Below are positions 396 to 27,401 of a stretch of DNA of 53,738 nucleotides, piece after piece (positions within the stretch are counted from its first letter, which is position 1; every line of letters begins with the position of its first letter). Made by a program: the position numbers and the translations under genes. The stretch is from a virus, in UHGV virus genome UHGV-0115803; one strand, 5' to 3'. The notes below the pieces were generated by a model, which was not told the origin of the DNA, did no database searches, and was given only the letters and a program-made list of their open reading frames with translations.

Positions 396-812
396 TCAAC
401 GATATGCGATCAATCTGCCTTTTTTATAAGCTTCAGCAAATTCAATTAGAGCTTCTGACATTAGTCTTTCAACGCTGCGCTCAGAGTAGCCAATTTCACG
501 GCCGATTTTATAATTAGAATAACCATCAGGTGCACAGTAGCGGTAATAGAGAACTTGACGACTTGTTATTCCCAAAGACATCAAAGCTGCTAAAATAGCA
601 TCTCTTTCAGCTTCAGCTTCCATAAATTGGATCATTCCGTCTTCCGCCTTGTTCCCCCATCTATCGCCTTTTGGCATGTCTGACATGACTGGTGATTTAA
701 TATCTATCATTGACTTTCCCGCTATACGTACCCACTTACGATAATTTTTCAATATTTTTCTTGCATTACATTTAGTTTGATAAAAATCGACTTCTCTCAA
801 TAGCTCTATCAT
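396..812 (-). CDS. ArpU-family (sigma-70 region-4-like) phage late transcription regulator
   Basis: 138 aa with a C-terminal HTH (ITSRQVLYYRY...IGREIGYSERSVERL). In the circular-map reading it sits upstream of the small-terminase region, the usual ArpU position. Confidence 0.55.
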   Translation of the reverse strand: MIELLREVDFYQTKCNARKILKNYRKWVRIAGKSMIDIKSPVMSDMPKGDRWGNKAEDGMIQFMEAEAERDAILAALMSLGITSRQVLYYRYCAPDGYSNYKIGREIGYSERSVERLMSEALIEFAEAYKKGRLIAYR

Positions 813-7184: not shown

Positions 7185-8195
7185 TTACGCTACATATTTT
7201 TCGTGTTCTAGTTTCAAGTCTGATCCCGACGTGTCGATGTATTGAAGCGTTGTGTCCACATCTGTGTGTCCGAGAAATCGCCGCACATCGTTCAGGCTCA
7301 TTCCTCTTTTCAGTGCTAAGGTTGCGGCAGTTCTCCGAAACTTATGTGGATGAACATGCGTCACGCCAGCACGTTTTCCAATTTCTTTGACCATCTTCTG
7401 AATACCGTTGCTAGTCATAGCTGTTCCCACTCCGTGTAATCCACACAGGATAGGTCCTTCTGAATGCGGCTTTATCACAAGATAATTATCAATAGCCACT
7501 TTGGCACGCGCATTGACGAAAACAACCCGTTCCTTGTTGCCTTTTCCGATCACAGTGATGGTTCCCCGTTGCTGATCATAGTTTTCCATCGTCAACATAG
7601 TCAGCTCTGTAACTCGGCAGCCTGTCGATAACAAGAGTTCGAATGTTGCTTTCTCTTTCGGCTTCCGACAAGCATTTCGCATCAGTTCTACTTCGACTGG
7701 CGTAAAGGCTTTTTTTAGTCGTTTTTCGACTTTGATCTTCTCAACCCTTCGTCCGGGATCCCTGCTAATGTATTCTTCTTCAAAGAGCCATTTAAAGAAT
7801 CGACAGATTGCACCGCGTTCTCTATCTAAAGTTGCTGATGATAGATGATCATTCATTTCTCTATTCGCAATGTAAAGACGTATATCATTCGTGGTCACAT
7901 CGTTAAATGATACTCGTACCCATCGATTAAATTTATCTATCGTTCGCATCGCCAGATTGATCGTTCCAGGCGAAAGACCGCGGAGTTTCATACTCACAAA
8001 ATATTGCTTGTATGCGGCAATGTCAGAAGTTTCATCGTAGATGATCACATCTCGACATTCTTCTTCGAGTCGTAATTTTTCTAGGTTGATTGTTAAAACA
8101 ATTTTCAGTTTTCTAAGTTGCTTTGCTTCAAGTTCGGGCTCCATATTCCTGACAACAGCATTAATAAATTGCTCTTTCAATTCCATGATTACCAC
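7185..8195 (-). CDS. XerC/XerD-like tyrosine recombinase (second recombinase of the element)
   Basis: 336 aa. C-terminal HPHKFRRTAATLALKRGMSLNDVRRFLGHTDVDTTLQYI (R..H..R..Y catalytic region). Sits among the early genes. Confidence 0.8.
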   Translation of the reverse strand: MVIMELKEQFINAVVRNMEPELEAKQLRKLKIVLTINLEKLRLEEECRDVIIYDETSDIAAYKQYFVSMKLRGLSPGTINLAMRTIDKFNRWVRVSFNDVTTNDIRLYIANREMNDHLSSATLDRERGAICRFFKWLFEEEYISRDPGRRVEKIKVEKRLKKAFTPVEVELMRNACRKPKEKATFELLLSTGCRVTELTMLTMENYDQQRGTITVIGKGNKERVVFVNARAKVAIDNYLVIKPHSEGPILCGLHGVGTAMTSNGIQKMVKEIGKRAGVTHVHPHKFRRTAATLALKRGMSLNDVRRFLGHTDVDTTLQYIDTSGSDLKLEHEKYVA

Positions 8196-8206: not shown

Positions 8207-8416
8207 TCAGCTCACATACATATCAAATTGTTTTTCAACTTCTTCACGTATAATTTCCATAGGTTTTGAAATGTTAACAAACCATTCATTCGCTGCTAGT
8301 ATTTCACTGATAATTTGTTCTTTCGGTGTTTGATTCGAATATTCTTTTGGCATCGCCTGAACAAATATCCTTACTTGACGATCAATTCTTTTCCGTTCCC
8401 ACATTTTCATGTTCAT
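8207..8416 (-). CDS. hypothetical protein
   Basis: ORF. Confidence 0.35.
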   Translation of the reverse strand: MNMKMWERKRIDRQVRIFVQAMPKEYSNQTPKEQIISEILAANEWFVNISKPMEIIREEVEKQFDMYVS

Positions 8417-8703
8417 ACCTCCAGATATCGATATGACTTCCCAAATCTATCAGTTCCGTTGTTCCTTGCTAGATTTCGAATGGTTACTGGTGACAAAGTG
8501 GATCGCTGTCCTAATTCATCCTCAGTTCCAACCAGTACAATCCGGTTATTGAAACTCACTTCAATTTTTTTCTTTGGATGTTTTGGCAATTCTCGCCATA
8601 TTTTATTGCTGAGTTTTTCTGCTTCACGTTTGATATCTTCGTCATACCAGTAATTTGGATGAGCCATCAACATTCGAAATCGTTCTTTGTCAGTCATTGT
8701 CAC
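8413..8703 (-). CDS. hypothetical protein
   Basis: ORF. Confidence 0.4.
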   Translation of the reverse strand: MTMTDKERFRMLMAHPNYWYDEDIKREAEKLSNKIWRELPKHPKKKIEVSFNNRIVLVGTEDELGQRSTLSPVTIRNLARNNGTDRFGKSYRYLEV

Positions 8704-8950
8704 GTAATCTCAACTCCCTTACACGGTCCACGCCGCTCTCAGTCATTCGAATGGTTCTCACTGCTCCCGGTTCGATATTTAACAAGTTCATGGCTTTCAA
8801 TTGCCATAAATATGAACTGACTGATGATGTTGAGGGGATGCCTGTATTTTTTGATATCTGACGAATCGTTGGTGGATATCCCTTTTTCGTAATAAAGTCA
8901 TCAATGAATAGCAACACTATTTCTAACCGCTGCCGCTTTATCTGTCTCAT
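8690..8950 (-). CDS. LexA N-terminal DNA-binding-domain-only protein (no S24 peptidase domain)
   Basis: KKGYPPTIRQISKNTGIPSTSSVSSYLWQLKAMNLL resembles the LexA winged helix (compare B. subtilis LexA [36 protein letters not shown]). Only 86 aa. Confidence 0.5.
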   Translation of the reverse strand: MRQIKRQRLEIVLLFIDDFITKKGYPPTIRQISKNTGIPSTSSVSSYLWQLKAMNLLNIEPGAVRTIRMTESGVDRVRELRLRDND

Positions 8951-9357
8951 TCTCGAACCTCTTTTCTTTTGGATATAGGCATATTAAAGGGATAGTGAAC
9001 GAATCTGCCGCTTTGTTTTTTTGCCAGTTCAATTACAATTCCCAGTTCGCTGGCGACAATCTTCGCTTTCAGCCGAAAATCTTTCGTTTCCATGCCTTTG
9101 ACATCAACAAGTCGAACAAGCTTTCCTTGATCGTAGAACGCATAATCGGCCACATACTGTGTTTTTTTGATTGTCCATGGATTGATTTTCAGCGTTGGAA
9201 GAATATCCAATCGTTCCTGAAGTTTTAGTTCATATTCATGTTTTCTTGCATACGCGACGGCGATTGGATAATAATCCGCCTCAGCAATCGAATCAAACCA
9301 ACGATCATAGCGATATACTTTTTTGTTACCGTATTTCGATCTTGATTGATACCTCAT
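8947..9357 (-). CDS. DUF1064-family phage protein
   Basis: YGNKKVYRYDRWFDSIAEADYY N-terminal motif. Confidence 0.45.
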   Translation of the reverse strand: MRYQSRSKYGNKKVYRYDRWFDSIAEADYYPIAVAYARKHEYELKLQERLDILPTLKINPWTIKKTQYVADYAFYDQGKLVRLVDVKGMETKDFRLKAKIVASELGIVIELAKKQSGRFVHYPFNMPISKRKEVRE

Positions 9358-9617
9358 GCAGACACCTCAACATTCAGTCGACTCGTGAGAAAAGTAAGAT
9401 AGTAATCAGCATTTGTTTTGCTGTAATCTACTTGTTTAGTGACGTATCGAAGAATATAGCAAGTGATCATTAGGCAGAAGCGGTGTTCGATTTCTTCATG
9501 AGAACAATCAAATCGAACCATCTTTCTTAAACGTTCATAGTACGAACGTAATAATTCTTTCTCATCCTCGTTACTCGCTGTTTCGCCTAATTTGCTAATG
9601 ATTTCGAGAAATCGCAT
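9354..9617 (-). CDS. hypothetical protein
   Basis: ORF. Confidence 0.4.
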   Translation of the reverse strand: MRFLEIISKLGETASNEDEKELLRSYYERLRKMVRFDCSHEEIEHRFCLMITCYILRYVTKQVDYSKTNADYYLTFLTSRLNVEVSA

Positions 9618-10548
9618 CTTCCATACCTCGCTTTACTATTTCTTTTCTCAGTATTTCTATTTCAGTTTCAGTAACTCCGCGGTTACCATACTTCTCAGCG
9701 AAATAGTCGAGAGAAGCATTCCCACTCATCTTTTCTGCCCACCAGTGATCCCAAAGTCTTTTGGTTGTCCAATCATTGCCCCGCTTTTGAGTATTCGAGT
9801 TTCGGGAATAATGTCCGTTTAAGTGCTTTCTTGCTTTTTCAACAGTGTCTATTTTAGATTCTTCCCAACTCTTCAGTATCTGGTTCAAATAATTGTAATT
9901 GCGTGCTCCATGTTTAAGCATGTCATCAATCGCAAGAATCACAATTTCATCTTGACCACCAAAATCGTTTACCCAATGCTGAATGGATTGAGTAATGAAT
10001 GGTGCTTCTGCTGAATTTACTTGATTGAGCCAATAACGCACAGCGCTATCTTCTGAATCTTTAGTATTACTAGATACAGAAGCATTAATATTATTTACTT
10101 TAGTTTTGTTTCCTTTACTTTGGGGATTAATGTTCACATTAACTCCTTCTGCTTGCGAGTTATTGTTAGCATTAATTAAATATGCTGTTGGTTTTGGCGA
10201 TTTCCTTCTCTTTGTCGCTTCGAAAAAATTTGCTTGGATGTTTTCGCTTGTCAAGACCTTAGCCGAGTTAAACAGGTCCTCATCAAAGAATCCCCATGTA
10301 ACTAAGCGGATGACTATTTGCTCTAACAATTCCTTACTTACTCCAGGCAGGCGTTTTAAAAGTGTTGCTCTCGTTAAGTCATTCCATACAACGAAGTATC
10401 CCTTTTTGTATACCGCGCATAACAGCTTGATTACCGCTAACTCACCTTTAATGCCAAACTCCCCAGCAATAGCTTCTATCTTTTCATCTTCAAAAATGTC
10501 AACATCAAGAGGGAAATAATCAAGACCGCTCTTTGTTGGTCTTGCCAC
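9595..10548 (-). CDS. DnaD-like replication protein / phage replisome organiser
   Basis: N-terminal YFPLDVDIFEDEKIEAI...AVIKLLCAVYKKGYF and C-terminal DnaD-like segment. Confidence 0.7.
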   Translation of the reverse strand: MARPTKSGLDYFPLDVDIFEDEKIEAIAGEFGIKGELAVIKLLCAVYKKGYFVVWNDLTRATLLKRLPGVSKELLEQIVIRLVTWGFFDEDLFNSAKVLTSENIQANFFEATKRRKSPKPTAYLINANNNSQAEGVNVNINPQSKGNKTKVNNINASVSSNTKDSEDSAVRYWLNQVNSAEAPFITQSIQHWVNDFGGQDEIVILAIDDMLKHGARNYNYLNQILKSWEESKIDTVEKARKHLNGHYSRNSNTQKRGNDWTTKRLWDHWWAEKMSGNASLDYFAEKYGNRGVTETEIEILRKEIVKRGMEDAISRNH

Positions 10549-11522: not shown

Positions 11523-12521
11523 TTAGTTAATCTCCTTTACTGCTAATTTTTTATAGCAAGATGTTTTATAAATAGAATGATCATTGGCTACTTCTGGATA
11601 CTTCTTTTCTAAAAGATCTTTATTAATCGTTTTTCGATTAAATGACTTCCACGAAATTATTGATTTAGGAGTAATAGCAACTACCGCATTTTGTTTTCCT
11701 AACTCCGATGTAATCTGATTATCGATTTGTTGAATTTTCTTTTTTATGAAAGCTTCATCATCCTTAAGTTGTTTCTTGGTCTCAATCAGCTCATCAAAGG
11801 TACTTGAAAGTGTAATCTCATTTTCGCCTTCTTCTGAATATCGTTCCTTAAGGAAATCGGTAGTTGCATCACTGCCATCTATTGCTGGTTCAATTCCTTT
11901 TAAAACATTCACTTCCCAGAATTCAACTAATCGTTCCGTAATCATATCAATCAAGGTTTGATCACGATTGACCTTCTTCCAAATGAAACGTTGACCACCG
12001 ATTAATACTGCTACATAAGCCCAATCACGATTCAAAACATTCATATAATGTTGTATTTGACACAGGTAACTCATTGGAATCTCGTTACCATCCCACTCTT
12101 TGGATAAAAAAGCATTTGCAGTTTTACATTCTAAAATCGCATTTTCTCCAACTACGTCACGATCAATATTTGCACGAAGAAATGGATGTAAGGGATGTTC
12201 GAAAACTTGATTCCGTCTTCGAACTTTTTTTCCAGTTCGCTCGGTAAACTCTTTCGCTACAACTTCTTCTAGTACATTGCCCCAATACGCTGGTTCACTG
12301 TCCGATTCCTCAATTTCAATTTGACCAGTCTTTTCAAGCCATAGTTGATATGGAGCTTTCCATTTATTCAATCCTAGAATCGTAGCAACATCAGAACCAC
12401 CAATACCTTTTTGACGATCCATCAACCATTCTGTTCTGGTCATGTCCAGTGTAGATTTACTCATCTTCAACCCACCCTTCCATATTTTCAGGATTATCTT
12501 CATCATTGGGTATGTGAACAT
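11523..12521 (-). CDS. YqaJ-like (lambda Exo-type) recombination exonuclease
   Basis: GIGGSDVATILGLNKWKAPYQLW...YVAVLIGGQ motifs; paired with RecT. Confidence 0.7.
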   Translation of the reverse strand: MFTYPMMKIILKIWKGGLKMSKSTLDMTRTEWLMDRQKGIGGSDVATILGLNKWKAPYQLWLEKTGQIEIEESDSEPAYWGNVLEEVVAKEFTERTGKKVRRRNQVFEHPLHPFLRANIDRDVVGENAILECKTANAFLSKEWDGNEIPMSYLCQIQHYMNVLNRDWAYVAVLIGGQRFIWKKVNRDQTLIDMITERLVEFWEVNVLKGIEPAIDGSDATTDFLKERYSEEGENEITLSSTFDELIETKKQLKDDEAFIKKKIQQIDNQITSELGKQNAVVAITPKSIISWKSFNRKTINKDLLEKKYPEVANDHSIYKTSCYKKLAVKEIN

Positions 12522-18590: not shown

Positions 18591-18625
18591 ACCTGGCGCC
18601 GCCGGTTCGATTCCGGCTTGGGGAA
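18585..18625 (+). other. tRNA-3'-half-like fragment / minihelix (TCCCCA..GCCGG-TTCGATT-CCGGC-TTGGGGA-A)
   Basis: Perfect T-arm (GCCGG/CCGGC with GTTCGATT loop) plus a 7-nt acceptor-like strand that pairs with an upstream TCCCCA. No D arm or anticodon arm. Confidence 0.4.
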
Positions 18626-18653
18626 TAAAAAACAAATTTTTTGGGAGGTAAAT

Positions 18654-19514
18654 ATGTCGAACGCATCTGAAGATCCAAAAATAATATCTTTCATTAATAT
18701 GAAAGGCGGTGTTGGTAAAACAACTCTTTGTAAGGAAGTTGGATATCACTTAGCAAAAATCAGAAAGAAAAGAGTTTTATTGATTGATACCGATCCACAA
18801 GCTAATTTAACTCAATCATTTTTTAAAAAGTTTCATTTAAAACAACCTGGTTCAATGTTAGAAGGTGAAGACTCTTTTGAAGAATCTTCAGCAAGTATCA
18901 ATAATCTCTTCAAGAGTGATGGTATAGACCCTTCAAAAAAACTAGTAATAAGAAATCTAGATGAACAATTATCAATTATCCCTGGTGATCTAAATACTGT
19001 TTTTATGTCTAGAAATACTGATTCCTCAACTATGAATCAGTCTATTTACAATTTTCTTTTTATGAATTCTAGTTTTGAAAAATCTGAATACGATTATATT
19101 TTGCTGGATTGTCCACCGACATACTCTGAATACACAATCTCTGCCATCTTAGCTAGTACACATTACATCATTCCAGTTAAACCTGACAATTATTCAGTTC
19201 TTGGAATACAGATGCTAGAAAAAGTGATTCAGGATATAAAGAAGAAAAATCCTATTTACTTTAAAGAAAAACCAATAAAGAATATTGGTATAATTTTTAC
19301 GGATTTGCCCCTAAGGGTTGCAACTGGACAGGCAGAAACGATAAAATTGATCAAAGAAACTAAAAAACTGGAACCTTTTTACTTTTTCCAATCACATTTT
19401 TTAAAAAATAATGGCTTTTTCAAAAAGCTTGATTACTTTGTTGACGCCAGAAACAGTGAAAAGTCAAAGGAAAATCTTTATGCATTAGTTTCTGAATTAA
19501 TAGGGAGGTTATAA
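18654..19514 (+). CDS. ParA/MinD-family deviant Walker-A ATPase
   Basis: NMKGGVGKTT, DTDPQANLT and ILLDCPP motifs. Start at the ATG after GGGAGG (the listed ORF begins at an upstream TTG). Confidence 0.7.
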   Translation: MSNASEDPKIISFINMKGGVGKTTLCKEVGYHLAKIRKKRVLLIDTDPQANLTQSFFKKFHLKQPGSMLEGEDSFEESSASINNLFKSDGIDPSKKLVIRNLDEQLSIIPGDLNTVFMSRNTDSSTMNQSIYNFLFMNSSFEKSEYDYILLDCPPTYSEYTISAILASTHYIIPVKPDNYSVLGIQMLEKVIQDIKKKNPIYFKEKPIKNIGIIFTDLPLRVATGQAETIKLIKETKKLEPFYFFQSHFLKNNGFFKKLDYFVDARNSEKSKENLYALVSELIGRL

Positions 19515-20590: not shown

Positions 20591-20601
20591 AACGAACAAA
20601 A

Positions 20602-20615
20602 CGAACATACATTCG
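20602..20615. promoter_or_regulatory. Cheo-box-like LexA site CGAACATACATTCG (13/14 to CGAACRNRYGTTCG) upstream of the small gene and integrase
   Basis: Matches the Firmicutes LexA consensus with one mismatch. Confidence 0.45.
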
Positions 20616-20721
20616 TATTCGTTGCTGTTTTATTCGATAGTCTAAGGAAACGTGTGAAAATAATCTTTTTTTGCACGTGTTTTCGAATCGTATACAAAAT
20701 ATTTCGAAAGGAAATGATTTT

Positions 20722-22776: not shown

Positions 22777-22805
22777 TTTACAAATCGAACATGCGTTCGT
22801 ATAAT
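22777..22805 (+). promoter_or_regulatory. sigma-A promoter TTTACA-17-TATAAT with a Cheo LexA box CGAACATGCGTTCG (14/14 to consensus) filling the spacer
   Basis: Read directly from the sequence; drives the translesion-synthesis operon. Confidence 0.6.
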
Positions 22806-22823: not shown

Positions 22824-23057
22824 ATGTTGGAAGATTACATCAGGACAAATTATGGAGATGACTACGCGAGAGTCTATAAAAAAATTACAGATAAACAACA
22901 TACTCAAATTGATCTAAATTTTATTTCTATTCTAGCAACAGGTAACAGCGACTTACCAGTCAGTATAGAAAAAGAAACTGTGATCAAGGACGGAAAATTG
23001 AAAGTTCGATATATCCTTGAAACAGAATTAAAATATCCGAAAACATCTGAGGAGTGA
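22824..23057 (+). CDS. hypothetical protein (77 aa), first gene of the SOS operon
   Basis: ATG after GAGGTG. The listed ORF start at 22791 lies inside the LexA box. Confidence 0.45.
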   Translation: MLEDYIRTNYGDDYARVYKKITDKQHTQIDLNFISILATGNSDLPVSIEKETVIKDGKLKVRYILETELKYPKTSEE

Positions 23058-23531: not shown

Positions 23532-24883
23532 ATGGATAGCGTTAATTTTAAATACGAGTTAGAACCCTCACGGGATTATGCTTTCATTGATATGAAGTCT
23601 TTTATGCAAGCTGCGAGTTAGTGTCTCGCGGATTACATCCGCTGCGTGATTTGTTGATCGTCATGAGCACGGCTGACAACACGTCGGGCTTAATACTAGC
23701 AAGCAGCCCAATGGCAAAAAAGGTCTTAGGAGTTCGCAACGTAGCGCGAAAATGGGATCTCCCTACCGAAGCGGAGAATCCTCGCGTCAGAGACTTGATC
23801 GTAGCACCGCCAAGGATGCGATATTACATTCAAGAAAATCTGAAAATCCAAAATGTTGTGCGCAAATATGCTGCTGACGAAGACATTATGTGGTACAGCA
23901 TCGACGAAGGCGTAGTCGATTTGACTGCCTCTCTTAACTATTTTGTACCTGATAAAAACCTAAGTCGTGCGCAAAAACTGGATATCGTTTCGCAGCGCAT
24001 CCAGCAAGATATTCTACGAGCAACTGGTATTTTTTCGACAGTCGGTATGTCAAACAGCAATCCCCTGCTCGCAAAATTGGCACTTGATAACGAAGCAAAA
24101 CACAATCACAATATGCGCGCATTGTGGAACTACGAAGACGTACCGACAAAAGTCTGGTCCATTCCTGAAATAGATGATTTTTGGGGAATCGGAAGTCGTA
24201 TGAAACGTAATTTGGAATTTATGAACATTAAGTCTATAAAAGATTTGGCGCATGCATCCCCCGAACGATTACATAAGAAATTCGGGATTATAGGACTTCA
24301 GTTGTTCCATCATGCGAACGGTATTGATCGATCTAAGTTACAAAAACCCTATGTTCCGAAAGGAAAGAACATTGGGAACAGTCAGGTGTTACCGCGTGAT
24401 TATGCCGGTTTTGAAATGCCTCTTCTTATAAGAGAAATGGCTGAACAAGTAGCCATTCGATTGCGTCGTAGAGGAGCACAAACGACAACCGTTCATTTAT
24501 TTATTGGCTACAGCAAAGATGAAGGAAAGCGTGGATTCGGACGTCAAATGAAAGTTCCCGCTACGAATGATACAAAGCAGTTAGCTGAGCATTTATTATT
24601 TTTATTCAACAAATTTTATGATGGTCGCGGGTTTATTCGACACATTGGTGTCACCTACTCTGATTTAGTATATGACGGTGGTGATCAGTTAAACCTTTTT
24701 GAAGATCCAACTGATCAAGAAAAAAGAATCAAAATCGATCAAGTAACAGATAAAATTCGTGAGAAATATGGTTTTGTGAGCATCGTTCGCGCAAGTTCAA
24801 CTTTGGAGAACGGTCGCAGCATAAAACGGGCTGGACTTGTGGGTGGTCATAATGGCGGCGCTGGTGGTTTAGATGGGTTATAA
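23532..24883 (+). pseudogene. Y-family DNA polymerase (UmuC/UvrX-like) interrupted by a 1-nt frameshift in a T-run (~23597-23601)
   Basis: Frame A encodes MDSVNFKYELEPSRDYAFIDMKSF..stop. Frame B continues FYASCELVSRGLHPLRDLLIVMS...SIDEGVVDLT (canonical SFYASCE motif). One extra T would fuse the two frames. Confidence 0.7.
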
Positions 24884-25309: not shown

Positions 25310-25611
25310 CTCTCAACACGGATGATTTAGAATTTGATTACCACACCGAGAATTCTGAAAAATTCACTAAGGACTTTTTGAACTATGTAATTACTGATGT
25401 TCCTCTGTTTGCCTTGCAAGATGAGTTTTTATATCTGATGAATAGACGTAAATTGACCTATTTCAAAATTCCTGGTTATAAATGCGTAGATGGTCAAGAC
25501 CATATTTTTTATTTTACTCTAAGGCATATAGAAGAAAATCCACGAATCAAAGTTTATCGATATCTTGGAATTGACCTAGAAAAGCACGGATTAATGAAAA
25601 GGAGTGAGTAG
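25291..25611 (+). CDS. hypothetical protein (106 aa)
   Basis: ORF. Confidence 0.4.
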   Translation: MESAFLTLNTDDLEFDYHTENSEKFTKDFLNYVITDVPLFALQDEFLYLMNRRKLTYFKIPGYKCVDGQDHIFYFTLRHIEENPRIKVYRYLGIDLEKHGLMKRSE

Positions 25612-25612
25612 C

Positions 25613-26203
25613 ATGTGTGGACGATATTTATTTGATCCAATGACTGGCGAATTGGATGAATACTGGCAGATTATCGCTGACGTAGCCAAGAAGCAAGAAA
25701 AGTATAAAGAGCAGGAAATTGCAACTGGCGAAGTATTCCCTTCTAACAACGTTTTGACTCTAGGTGCTAATAAAAATAATGAGGTTGTACCAGGGATTAC
25801 TAAATGGGGATTTGAGGGCTTCAAAAAAGGACAGCTCTTCATCAATGCCCGTGCCGAATCAGTTGAGGAAAAGAAAACCTTTAGCAAGCATTTCCGTGAA
25901 CGTCGCATTGTCTTTCCGATGAACGGCTTCTACGAATGGGATTCTGACAAAAAGAAATTTCTCTTCACTGGCAATAACGAAGTTATTTACGTTGCCGGCT
26001 TTTATCGCATTCATGAGAATGTTGCAGAATCAATTATTATGACCACTGAACCGAATGCTGCAGTCTCCCCCATTCATGATCGCATGCCCTTAATCATTGA
26101 AAAAAGCGATATAGATAAATGGGTTCTTGATTTAGATTTTGCTAGAGAATACCTAAAGCGTGATATGGATAAATTCGAAAACTTAAAAATTAAATCTGCA
26201 TAA
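25613..26203 (+). CDS. SRAP/YedK (HMCES) family abasic-site processing protein
   Basis: True N-terminus is MCGRY (Cys2 nucleophile), with INARAE, GFYEW and IHDRMP motifs. The listed ORF starts 9 nt too early. Confidence 0.8.
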   Translation: MCGRYLFDPMTGELDEYWQIIADVAKKQEKYKEQEIATGEVFPSNNVLTLGANKNNEVVPGITKWGFEGFKKGQLFINARAESVEEKKTFSKHFRERRIVFPMNGFYEWDSDKKKFLFTGNNEVIYVAGFYRIHENVAESIIMTTEPNAAVSPIHDRMPLIIEKSDIDKWVLDLDFAREYLKRDMDKFENLKIKSA

Positions 26204-27212: not shown

Positions 27213-27330
27213 TCTTTAGTATATAATGTTAAGGTTACATATGCAATAGAAAAAACAGCTTAGTTTAGAGGTCTTTACTATAACTATTTAACTTAAAATC
27301 AGTTTTCTAGATTACATTTAGTTTTTTTAT

Positions 27331-27401
27331 GTACCCCGCAGGCCTCGAACCCGCATCTTCCGATATGAACCGGAGTATTCTACCAATTGAACTAAGGGTA
27401 C
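27331..27401 (-). tRNA. tRNA-like gene (CAT anticodon candidate) with a non-canonical anticodon arm
   Basis: Acceptor GTACCCT/GGGGTAC, D-arm GTTC-AATTGGTA-GAAT, T-arm GCGGG-TTCGAGG-CCTGC. The anticodon arm folds only as a 5-bp stem with a 6-nt loop, or a 4-bp stem with an 8-nt loop. Confidence 0.55.

Follow-up and report, generated by a model that had tools for sequence, protein, structure and literature searches.

An 86-aa open reading frame in the early operon of an Enterococcus phage encodes a LexA DNA-binding head that lacks the S24 autocleavage/dimerisation domain. Public databases already list this protein (hereafter the LexA head) as a 'LexA family protein', and it belongs to a frequent class of phage genes that has one characterised precedent, gp6 of phage GIL01. 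We judged the chances about even that the LexA head is a non-cleavable transcription factor that works in the manner of gp6 and has its own operator. All coordinates refer to the window, which is the whole 53,738-nucleotide stretch of DNA that was analysed.

Domain and fold of the LexA head

The protein starts at an ATG and has the sequence MRQIKRQRLEIVLLFIDDFITKKGYPPTIRQISKNTGIPSTSSVSSYLWQLKAMNLLNIEPGAVRTIRMTESGVDRVRELRLRDND, which contains KGYPPTIRQI...STSSVSSYL. The initial annotation had recognised a LexA winged-helix DNA-binding domain in it, and a Pfam profile search bore this out: LexA_DNA_bind (PF01726) matched residues 6–66 on profile positions 7–65 of 65 with E = 1.4e-12 and 47.6 bits, against a gathering cut-off of 23.7 bits. 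A phmmer search of the PDB returned LexA of T. maritima (3.9e-6) and the DNA-binding domain of E. coli LexA (3e-4). An AlphaFold2 model, for which the input was an alignment of 90 short homologues, had a pLDDT of 92.6 and contained helices at residues 2–23, 29–36 and 41–53, a wing at 57–69 and a C-terminal helix at 71–85. LexA N-terminal domains occupied ranks 1–9 throughout when this model was searched with Foldseek (rmsd 0.9–1.5 Å); the best superpositions had an rmsd of 0.9 Å over 62–64 residues, at 31–34% identity. By its score above threshold and a fold that superposes on solved LexA N-terminal domains, the protein is a member of the LexA_DNA_bind family. PHROGs assigned it to phrog_3502 (unknown function) and phrog_362 ('transcriptional repressor'). 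The features of the gene are:

8690–8950, minus strand: stand-alone LexA-type winged-helix protein, 86 aa (open reading frame, Pfam, AlphaFold2, Foldseek)
8753–8935, minus strand: segment matching Pfam LexA_DNA_bind, residues 6–66 (profile alignment)
8792–8833, minus strand: predicted recognition helix alpha3, residues 40–53, STSSVSSYLWQLKA (AlphaFold2 secondary structure)
8696–8740, minus strand: extra C-terminal helix after the wing, residues 71–85, not in LexA (AlphaFold2 secondary structure)

The absence of an S24 domain, also part of the initial annotation, was confirmed. Pfam detected no second domain in the 86 residues, which leave no room for S24, and in alignments with LexA-size proteins the LexA head stops before the S24 block. 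The NCBIfam lexA equivalog TIGR00498 matched only over profile positions 7–74 of 203 and scored 49.3 bits, below its cut-off of 110.95. Thus, lacking the S24 Ser/Lys dyad and the dimer interface and falling short of the equivalog cut-off, the protein is not a LexA repressor proper. What it shares with bacterial LexA is the N-terminal fold, at the rmsd and identity given above, and the GYPPT-R-I and S-x-S-x-V motifs; bacterial LexA has in addition a linker, a cleavage site and the S24 catalytic/dimerisation domain, whereas the LexA head has none of these. Given the established LexA mechanism, a protein without S24 is predicted to escape inactivation by RecA-stimulated self-cleavage. The missing C-terminal domain also limits an earlier suggestion, that the protein might act as a dominant-negative competitor of LexA: heterodimerisation is impossible without that domain, and competition on DNA is the sole route that remains. 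The short homologues have in common RTIxLT-xxG followed by a short tail. In the model, the C-terminal helix (residues 71–85) is a candidate dimerisation or partner surface.

Genome setting and early operon

The window represents a temperate Enterococcus phage whose sequence is circularly permuted. We found an identical LexA head on 941 contigs named Enterococcus. Integrated copies exist in which the integrase abuts the host pgi gene that follows it, and a 54-kb gut-metagenome contig matches the window in its circular layout. Genes on the plus strand encode a CI-like XRE repressor, an ImmA-type M78 protease, a ParA-like ATPase and the integrase, as well as the products of the Y-polymerase/SRAP operon. 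On the minus strand, the early operon runs from a cro-like gene through RecE/YqaJ, RecT, a DnaD-like initiator, an 87-aa ORF and DUF1064 to the LexA head, and then through p96, p69, an XerC/D-like recombinase, MazG and about 6 kb of small genes to an ArpU-family gene, downstream of which lie the packaging, morphogenesis and lysis genes. The genes most relevant here are:

8947–9357, minus strand: DUF1064 gene (PHROG 'Holliday junction resolvase') upstream of the LexA head; 4-nt overlap with the start of the winged-helix gene
8413–8703, minus strand: 96-aa gene p96 (phrog_5224, unknown function) downstream of the LexA head; overlaps the stop of the winged-helix gene
9595–10548, minus strand: DnaD-like replication initiator/replisome organiser (Pfam Lin1244_N and DnaB_2; PHROG replication initiation)
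396–812, minus strand: ArpU-family late (packaging/lysis) transcription regulator (TIGR01637, 112.6 bits against a cut-off of 43.1; phrog_248)

Because the gene of the LexA head overlaps the stop of DUF1064 by 4 nt and also the start of p96, it is without a promoter of its own. It is a delayed-early gene, translationally coupled within a replication/recombination module.

This setting could mean that the LexA head is an accessory DNA-binding factor of replication or recombination, acting at an origin or on branched DNA with the DnaD-like initiator, DUF1064 or p96. We consider that unlikely, although the gene is translationally coupled to DUF1064 and always adjoins DUF1064 and p96, independent distant homologues lie beside a DnaD-like loader, NinB or a RuvC-like resolvase, and the protein gave a weak DnaD_N match (E = 0.091). 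That match, at 13.4 bits, is far under its cut-off of 27, and a generic delayed-early position would equally give the adjacency. To our knowledge, moreover, all characterised proteins with a LexA_DNA_bind domain (LexA and gp6) are transcription factors. An origin might be at hand: a 51-bp imperfect inverted repeat (10126–10176; 20-nt arms, 85% complementary) falls within the linker region of the DnaD-like gene and is a candidate for the phage origin, which would fit the accessory role.

Like the LexA head, ArpU/RinA-type proteins are small regulators whose genes lie in the early/middle region of the phage, 5' of the packaging genes, but they have a different, sigma-like fold and belong to a different family. 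Since the phage has its own ArpU (396–812), the winged-helix protein would be an additional regulator and not an ArpU equivalent; with the late-activator slot already taken, a direct late-activator role like that of gp6 is unneeded.

Three further elements of the genome were recorded. Besides the integrase, the early operon encodes an XerC/D/XerA-like tyrosine recombinase (7185–8195, minus strand), and the lysogeny module a ParA-like ATPase (18618–19514, plus strand); together these hint at dimer resolution or partitioning, perhaps in a plasmid-like phase, yet copies integrated at pgi exist. Directly 3' of the integrase gene, the segment 22230–22530 contains repeated (T)CTATCACC motifs, which are likely the arm-type integrase binding sites of attP. 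The sole Rfam match in the window was a tRNA-like element (27330–27401, minus strand; 38.6 bits), located in the accessory region that separates the SRAP operon from the lysin, for which ARAGORN reported an abnormal anticodon loop ('tRNA-???').

LexA boxes in the window

We searched for Cheo (LexA) boxes of the CGAAC-N4-GTTCG type with the pattern CGAACNNNNGTTCG, allowing at most one mismatch. The only perfect occurrence in the window was CGAACATGCGTTCG at 22786–22799; a second box, CGAACATACATTCG at 20602–20615, has one mismatch. By itself this count is not beyond chance, as at least two boxes with at most one mismatch arose in 18 of 100 shuffles, and at least one GAAC-N4-GTTC in 51 of 100. 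The two sites are:

22786–22799, plus strand: perfect Cheo box in the promoter spacer of the Y-polymerase/SRAP operon (sequence match and placement)
20593–20622, plus strand: cluster of CGAAC/ATTCG units that includes the one-mismatch box 20602–20615 (sequence, after a terminator)

Placement supports the perfect box convincingly. It fills the 17-nt spacer of TTTACA-N17-TATAAT (22777–22805; 11 of 12 consensus matches), and 3' of this promoter a ribosome-binding site and the ATG at 22824 open an operon with a Y-family polymerase (23621–24883) and an SRAP peptidase (25604–26203). A Y-family polymerase operon whose promoter contains an SOS box is the classical case of repression by host LexA, and by analogy the box is most simply a predicted host-LexA operator. 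The imperfect box belongs to a cluster with the layout CGAAC-AAAA-CGAAC-ATAC-ATTCG-TA-TTCG, situated just past a terminator and about 55 nt 5' of a small ORF and the integrase. No consensus promoter was found around 20602–20615. The imperfect cluster may nevertheless be functional, because the ATTCG variant likewise adjoins a perfect LexA box in the P3 region of GIL01. In light of the classical arrangement at the polymerase promoter, host LexA sufficiently explains both boxes.

Two related prophages integrated next to lepA (L011 and L012) carry a Cheo-type box, AGAACATACGTTTG on the integrase strand (1501–1514 and 2188–2201, respectively), 42 bp 5' of an integrase unrelated to that of the window. 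These sequences suggest that SOS-box control of the integrase may be recurrent in these Enterococcus prophages.

A frame change at a T4 run (about 23596–23599, within 23533–23640, plus strand) breaks the Y-family polymerase gene itself. The ORF from ATG 23533 reads ...YAFIDMKSF and then stops, and FYASCELVSRGLHPL continues in the −1 frame; the 420-aa ORF from GTG 23621 is without the N-terminal catalytic-Asp motif, and the same 420-aa call was seen in another contig (L018). Ribosomal slippage, an assembly error or decay into a pseudogene could account for the break.

The initial annotation had joined the boxes to the LexA head and cast the protein as a LexA mimic. As such a surrogate, the uncleavable head would bind Cheo boxes at the integrase cluster, the Y-polymerase operon and host SOS promoters, where it would re-repress or compete; we regard this as possible though doubtful. 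The Cheo-like boxes before two unrelated integrases in carrier prophages speak for it, as does the behaviour of the isolated N-terminal fragment of E. coli LexA, which keeps weak operator binding and dimerises on DNA. On the other side, host LexA alone explains all the boxes. In a fuller version, which we likewise doubt, the surrogate, produced early in the lytic cycle, would re-occupy phage and host boxes after RecA has destroyed LexA, shutting SOS down and curtailing integrase and moron expression during replication; stand-alone heads would make up a widespread SOS-rewiring toolkit of phages, to which the near-canonical heads with Cheo boxes in Bacillus-type phages would also belong.

Recognition helix and specificity

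Base contacts of E. coli LexA are made by S39, N41, A42 and E45 (PMC11442139). In a gap-free alignment to 1lea, the residues of the LexA head that align with these are S40, S42, S43 and S46. At the first three of the four positions LexA-size homologues carry S, S and T/S, the fourth being variable, and one of them (P0120, with the helix STSSVHSHL) has S, S, S and S, exactly as in the LexA head; this sharing of contact residues favours a surrogate LexA. Judged by the alignment, the contact positions appear compatible with a Firmicutes-type LexA and with GAAC-type half-sites.

The rest of the helix is less canonical. It reads STSSVSSYL in the LexA head versus S[AT]S[TS]VH.[YH]L in LexA-size homologues. 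His45, present in four of five Firmicutes-type LexA-size matches, is replaced by Ser in the LexA head, and positions 46–47 differ as well; the canonical helix in this comparison was defined from the LexA-size matches and near-canonical phage copies. Furthermore, because the LexA dimer domain is missing, the spacing of half-sites need not be N4, which counts against a surrogate that reads Cheo boxes. Pairing of two heads could occur through the extra C-terminal helix or by dimerisation on DNA.

Related loci

We examined twelve genome loci, of which eight encode the identical protein and four a homologue that is 76% identical. All twelve retain DUF1064, the winged-helix gene, p96/98 and p67–69, and the larger block of DnaD-like gene, DUF1064, winged-helix gene, p96 and p69 was retained in these loci (L002–L013) and in twelve viral loci (L021–L032). 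In every related locus examined, p96 accompanies the LexA head. The carriers differ in immunity (ImmR/ImmA or CI-S24), and their integrases and late modules also vary.

GAAC-N4-GTTC did not occur in twelve related 20-kb neighbourhoods (10 kb each side of the gene, about 240 kb). The gene of the LexA head therefore travels with the replication/recombination module and not with the boxes, and the absence of a Cheo core within 10 kb on either side in 12 related prophages weighs against a surrogate LexA. Of the mimic proposal, then, the LexA domain and its non-cleavability stood, but mimicry is not the leading reading, given that host LexA explains the boxes and that the gene travels without them.

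The same loci bear on a role as a recombination directionality or accessory factor for the XerC/D-like recombinase (7185–8195) or the integrase, which we hold to be very improbable. Small winged-helix proteins are common among excisionases, in most loci the recombinase follows as the third gene after the winged-helix gene, and CGAA-type repeats are found 5' of the integrase operon. However, L011 and L012 retain the winged-helix gene, p98 and p68 but are without the recombinase, for which reason linkage to the recombinase was rejected; distant homologues are also unlinked to recombinases.

Two sub-types of stand-alone LexA heads

An exhaustive HMMER search returned 1194 clusters at E ≤ 1e-3. 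Among the best 150 of these matches, about 85 were at most 120 aa long and only about seven were LexA-sized; some had tandem copies of the domain. From IMG/VR, using a 10-sequence alignment for retrieval, we confirmed 139 viral relatives, and 69 of the 80 loci kept were ORFs of at most 130 aa. Stand-alone LexA heads are thus a common, mostly phage-borne gene type. These counts (69/80 viral loci; 1194 clusters), with gp6 already characterised, contradict the earlier view that the protein represents an unusual wiring of a phage into SOS.

Upstream of the homologues, GAAC-N4-GTTY was enriched tenfold: within 250 bp 5' of the genes in the 80 viral loci we counted 11 in 20.8 kb versus 39 in 770 kb. 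The box-bearing loci mostly have their own promoter space, the canonical Firmicutes-LexA helix SSSTVH.HL and Pfam scores of 91–104 bits. Near-canonical heads with a Cheo box 14–80 bp upstream were seen at L015 (4904) and L016 (4924) and, in IMG/VR, at L036, L041, L047, L074, L079, L065 and L038. Their sequences suggest that the near-canonical heads are SOS-induced or autoregulated, and they form an apparently coherent, uncharacterised sub-class. The Bacillus-type phage heads (phage 11143, 'LexA DNA-binding domain protein'; Wrath; and L036, L041, L047, L074 and L079), known from annotation only, share with the LexA head a stand-alone LexA_DNA_bind domain in a protein of 71–100 aa and a temperate phage as carrier. 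They differ from it in scoring 91–104 bits and in having the SSSTVH.HL helix, their own promoter and a Cheo box 14–80 bp 5'; they lie between integrase and lysin, whereas the gene in the window is embedded in the early operon and has no box. A conserved two-gene cassette was rejected, as p96 is without similarity to the small ORFs that follow the Bacillus-phage homologues.

By contrast, most viral homologues (57 of 76) are embedded in operons, where a 4-nt overlap is frequent and no space is left for a separate promoter. The recognition helices of these embedded homologues are very diverse, which points to diversified specificities. Their nameable neighbours include a DnaD-like loader (L064), NinB (L070), a RuvC-like resolvase (L091) and DnaD-like plus DUF1064 genes (L051), that is, a delayed-early replication/recombination setting as in the window; distant homologues near replication/recombination genes have 30–37% identity. 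With 47.6 bits and the helix STSSVSSYLWQL, the LexA head of the window belongs to this embedded, diverged sub-type.

The box-linked sub-type can be read in favour of a surrogate LexA, given the tenfold enrichment 5' of family members (one of which, L038, has Ser45 like the LexA head) and the boxes about 80 bp 5' of the stand-alone gene in phages 11143 and Wrath. Yet those members are mostly near-canonical (91–104 bits), whereas the LexA head scores 47.6 bits and is without the His45/Gly46/His47 pattern.

Comparison with gp6 of GIL01

In a literature search for characterised stand-alone LexA heads of Enterococcus and other Firmicutes, we found only the work on GIL01/Bam35. The gp6 protein of GIL01, a truncated homologue of LexA, activates the late promoter P3, whose −35 element overlaps the site GaCACAnnTGTGaC that gp6 binds; Lys38, in the recognition helix, is essential (PMC6182141). 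P3 is repressed by host LexA together with gp7 via tandem LexA boxes (PMC6182141). The gp6 operator GaCACAnnTGTGaC differs from the LexA box, so that specificity can change, a precedent that argues against a surrogate LexA (PMC6182141).

Like the LexA head, gp6 of GIL01/Bam35 (Betatectivirus) consists of the winged-helix domain alone, without S24, and it scores in the same range against the same Pfam family (51.6 vs 47.6 bits). Its gene directly follows that of the DNA polymerase and closes the replication part of the early operon, a position comparable to that of the LexA head; GIL01, like the window phage, also carries LexA boxes. A phage-encoded protein with only the LexA DNA-binding domain, made from an early operon after the replication genes, the LexA head is gp6-like. 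The two nevertheless show no pairwise BLASTP similarity. gp6 has 66 aa and is without the extra C-terminal helix, whereas the LexA head has 86 aa; Lys38 of gp6 corresponds to Ser42 in the LexA head; and the gp6 phage is a tectivirus, whereas that of the LexA head is a siphovirus-type Enterococcus prophage with an ArpU late regulator. The gp6-type sequence GaCACAnnTGTGaC had six matches in the window at two or fewer mismatches, versus 3.0 expected, and none in a promoter context. The LexA head falls in the same category as gp6 but is not a gp6 orthologue.

Search for an operator

We enumerated exact palindromes over the window (arms of 5–7, spacers of 0–10). None that was repeated, or shared with P0005-type loci or with the contig of P0027 (a protein that has the same recognition helix), was linked to the gene, and across the window and related loci no repeated or conserved dyad linked to the gene emerged as a candidate operator.

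Several candidates were considered individually. A 19-bp perfect palindrome, TGTTAT-N7-ATAACA (836–854), lies 22 nt 5' of the ArpU-family gene and adjoins a GC-rich hairpin (858–881) whose opposite strand has a T-run; two copies of ATTATAGCATAA (at 825 and 981) fall in the surrounding block 825–992. This block is conserved with arpU in many related prophages, some about 75% diverged, and might serve the late regulator as a control site or as the source of a small antisense RNA. As an obligatory target of the LexA head the palindrome was rejected, since it is absent from L012, which carries the gene. When GAAC/GTTC dyads with other spacings were examined, only CGAAC-N10-GTTCG was common to all loci; it lies inside the YqaJ/RecE-like gene (12220–12239) and had the same position in that gene in 13 of 13 related sequences, including the diverged P0005 loci, which is probably a coding constraint. 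CGAAC/GTTCG pentamers were in excess at 8770–9543 (seven versus about one expected). This signal was also rejected: it lies within coding sequence and the P0005 loci do not share it, and we therefore treated it as chance or codon composition.

Proposed role of the LexA head

Domain, fold, absence of S24, operon position, synteny and family distribution are observations, from which we infer DNA binding, dimerisation (through the C-terminal helix or on DNA) and a regulatory role. We favour a transcription factor of the gp6 kind on several grounds. First, gp6, the only characterised member, shares the domain, the score range and the place in the operon, and it binds a non-LexA palindrome. Second, there is no Cheo core in about 240 kb of related early regions. 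Third, the synteny block persists despite differing immunity and late modules, and 57 of 76 homologues are embedded. Fourth, the diversity of recognition helices across the class points to specificities that have diversified. Counting against this reading are the lack of an operator candidate, the absence from L012 of the palindrome 5' of arpU, the presence of ArpU, the absence of similarity to gp6, the change of Lys38 to Ser and contact positions that fit a Firmicutes-type LexA.

The LexA head is a product of the delayed-early lytic operon, which begins with the cro-like gene, and is encoded in a module analogous to the lambda nin region. As such a factor, it would accumulate after induction. 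Helix alpha3 and the wing would bind a dyad operator of its own that had drifted from the host Cheo box. Bound there, the protein might time transcription; its targets would be middle/late genes ahead of the ArpU step or, alternatively, lysogeny-side genes. Its place would be between the ImmR/ImmA switch and the ArpU step, and it would not be a surrogate LexA.

Significance

The most useful by-product of this analysis is the split of the class into near-canonical heads with Cheo-box promoters and diverged heads in replication modules, two sub-types that offer testable groups for experiments. Were Cheo-box binding true of the LexA head, phages would have a simple means, unaffected by RecA, of silencing the host SOS regulon, with bearing on prophage induction, mutagenesis by Y-family polymerases and antibiotic responses in enterococci. 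If instead the LexA head has its own operator, it would insert a further level of control, after the ImmR/ImmA switch and before the ArpU step, in Enterococcus prophages of a widespread group, and the principle known from gp6, a LexA head reused as a phage transcription factor, would extend from tectiviruses to tailed phages.
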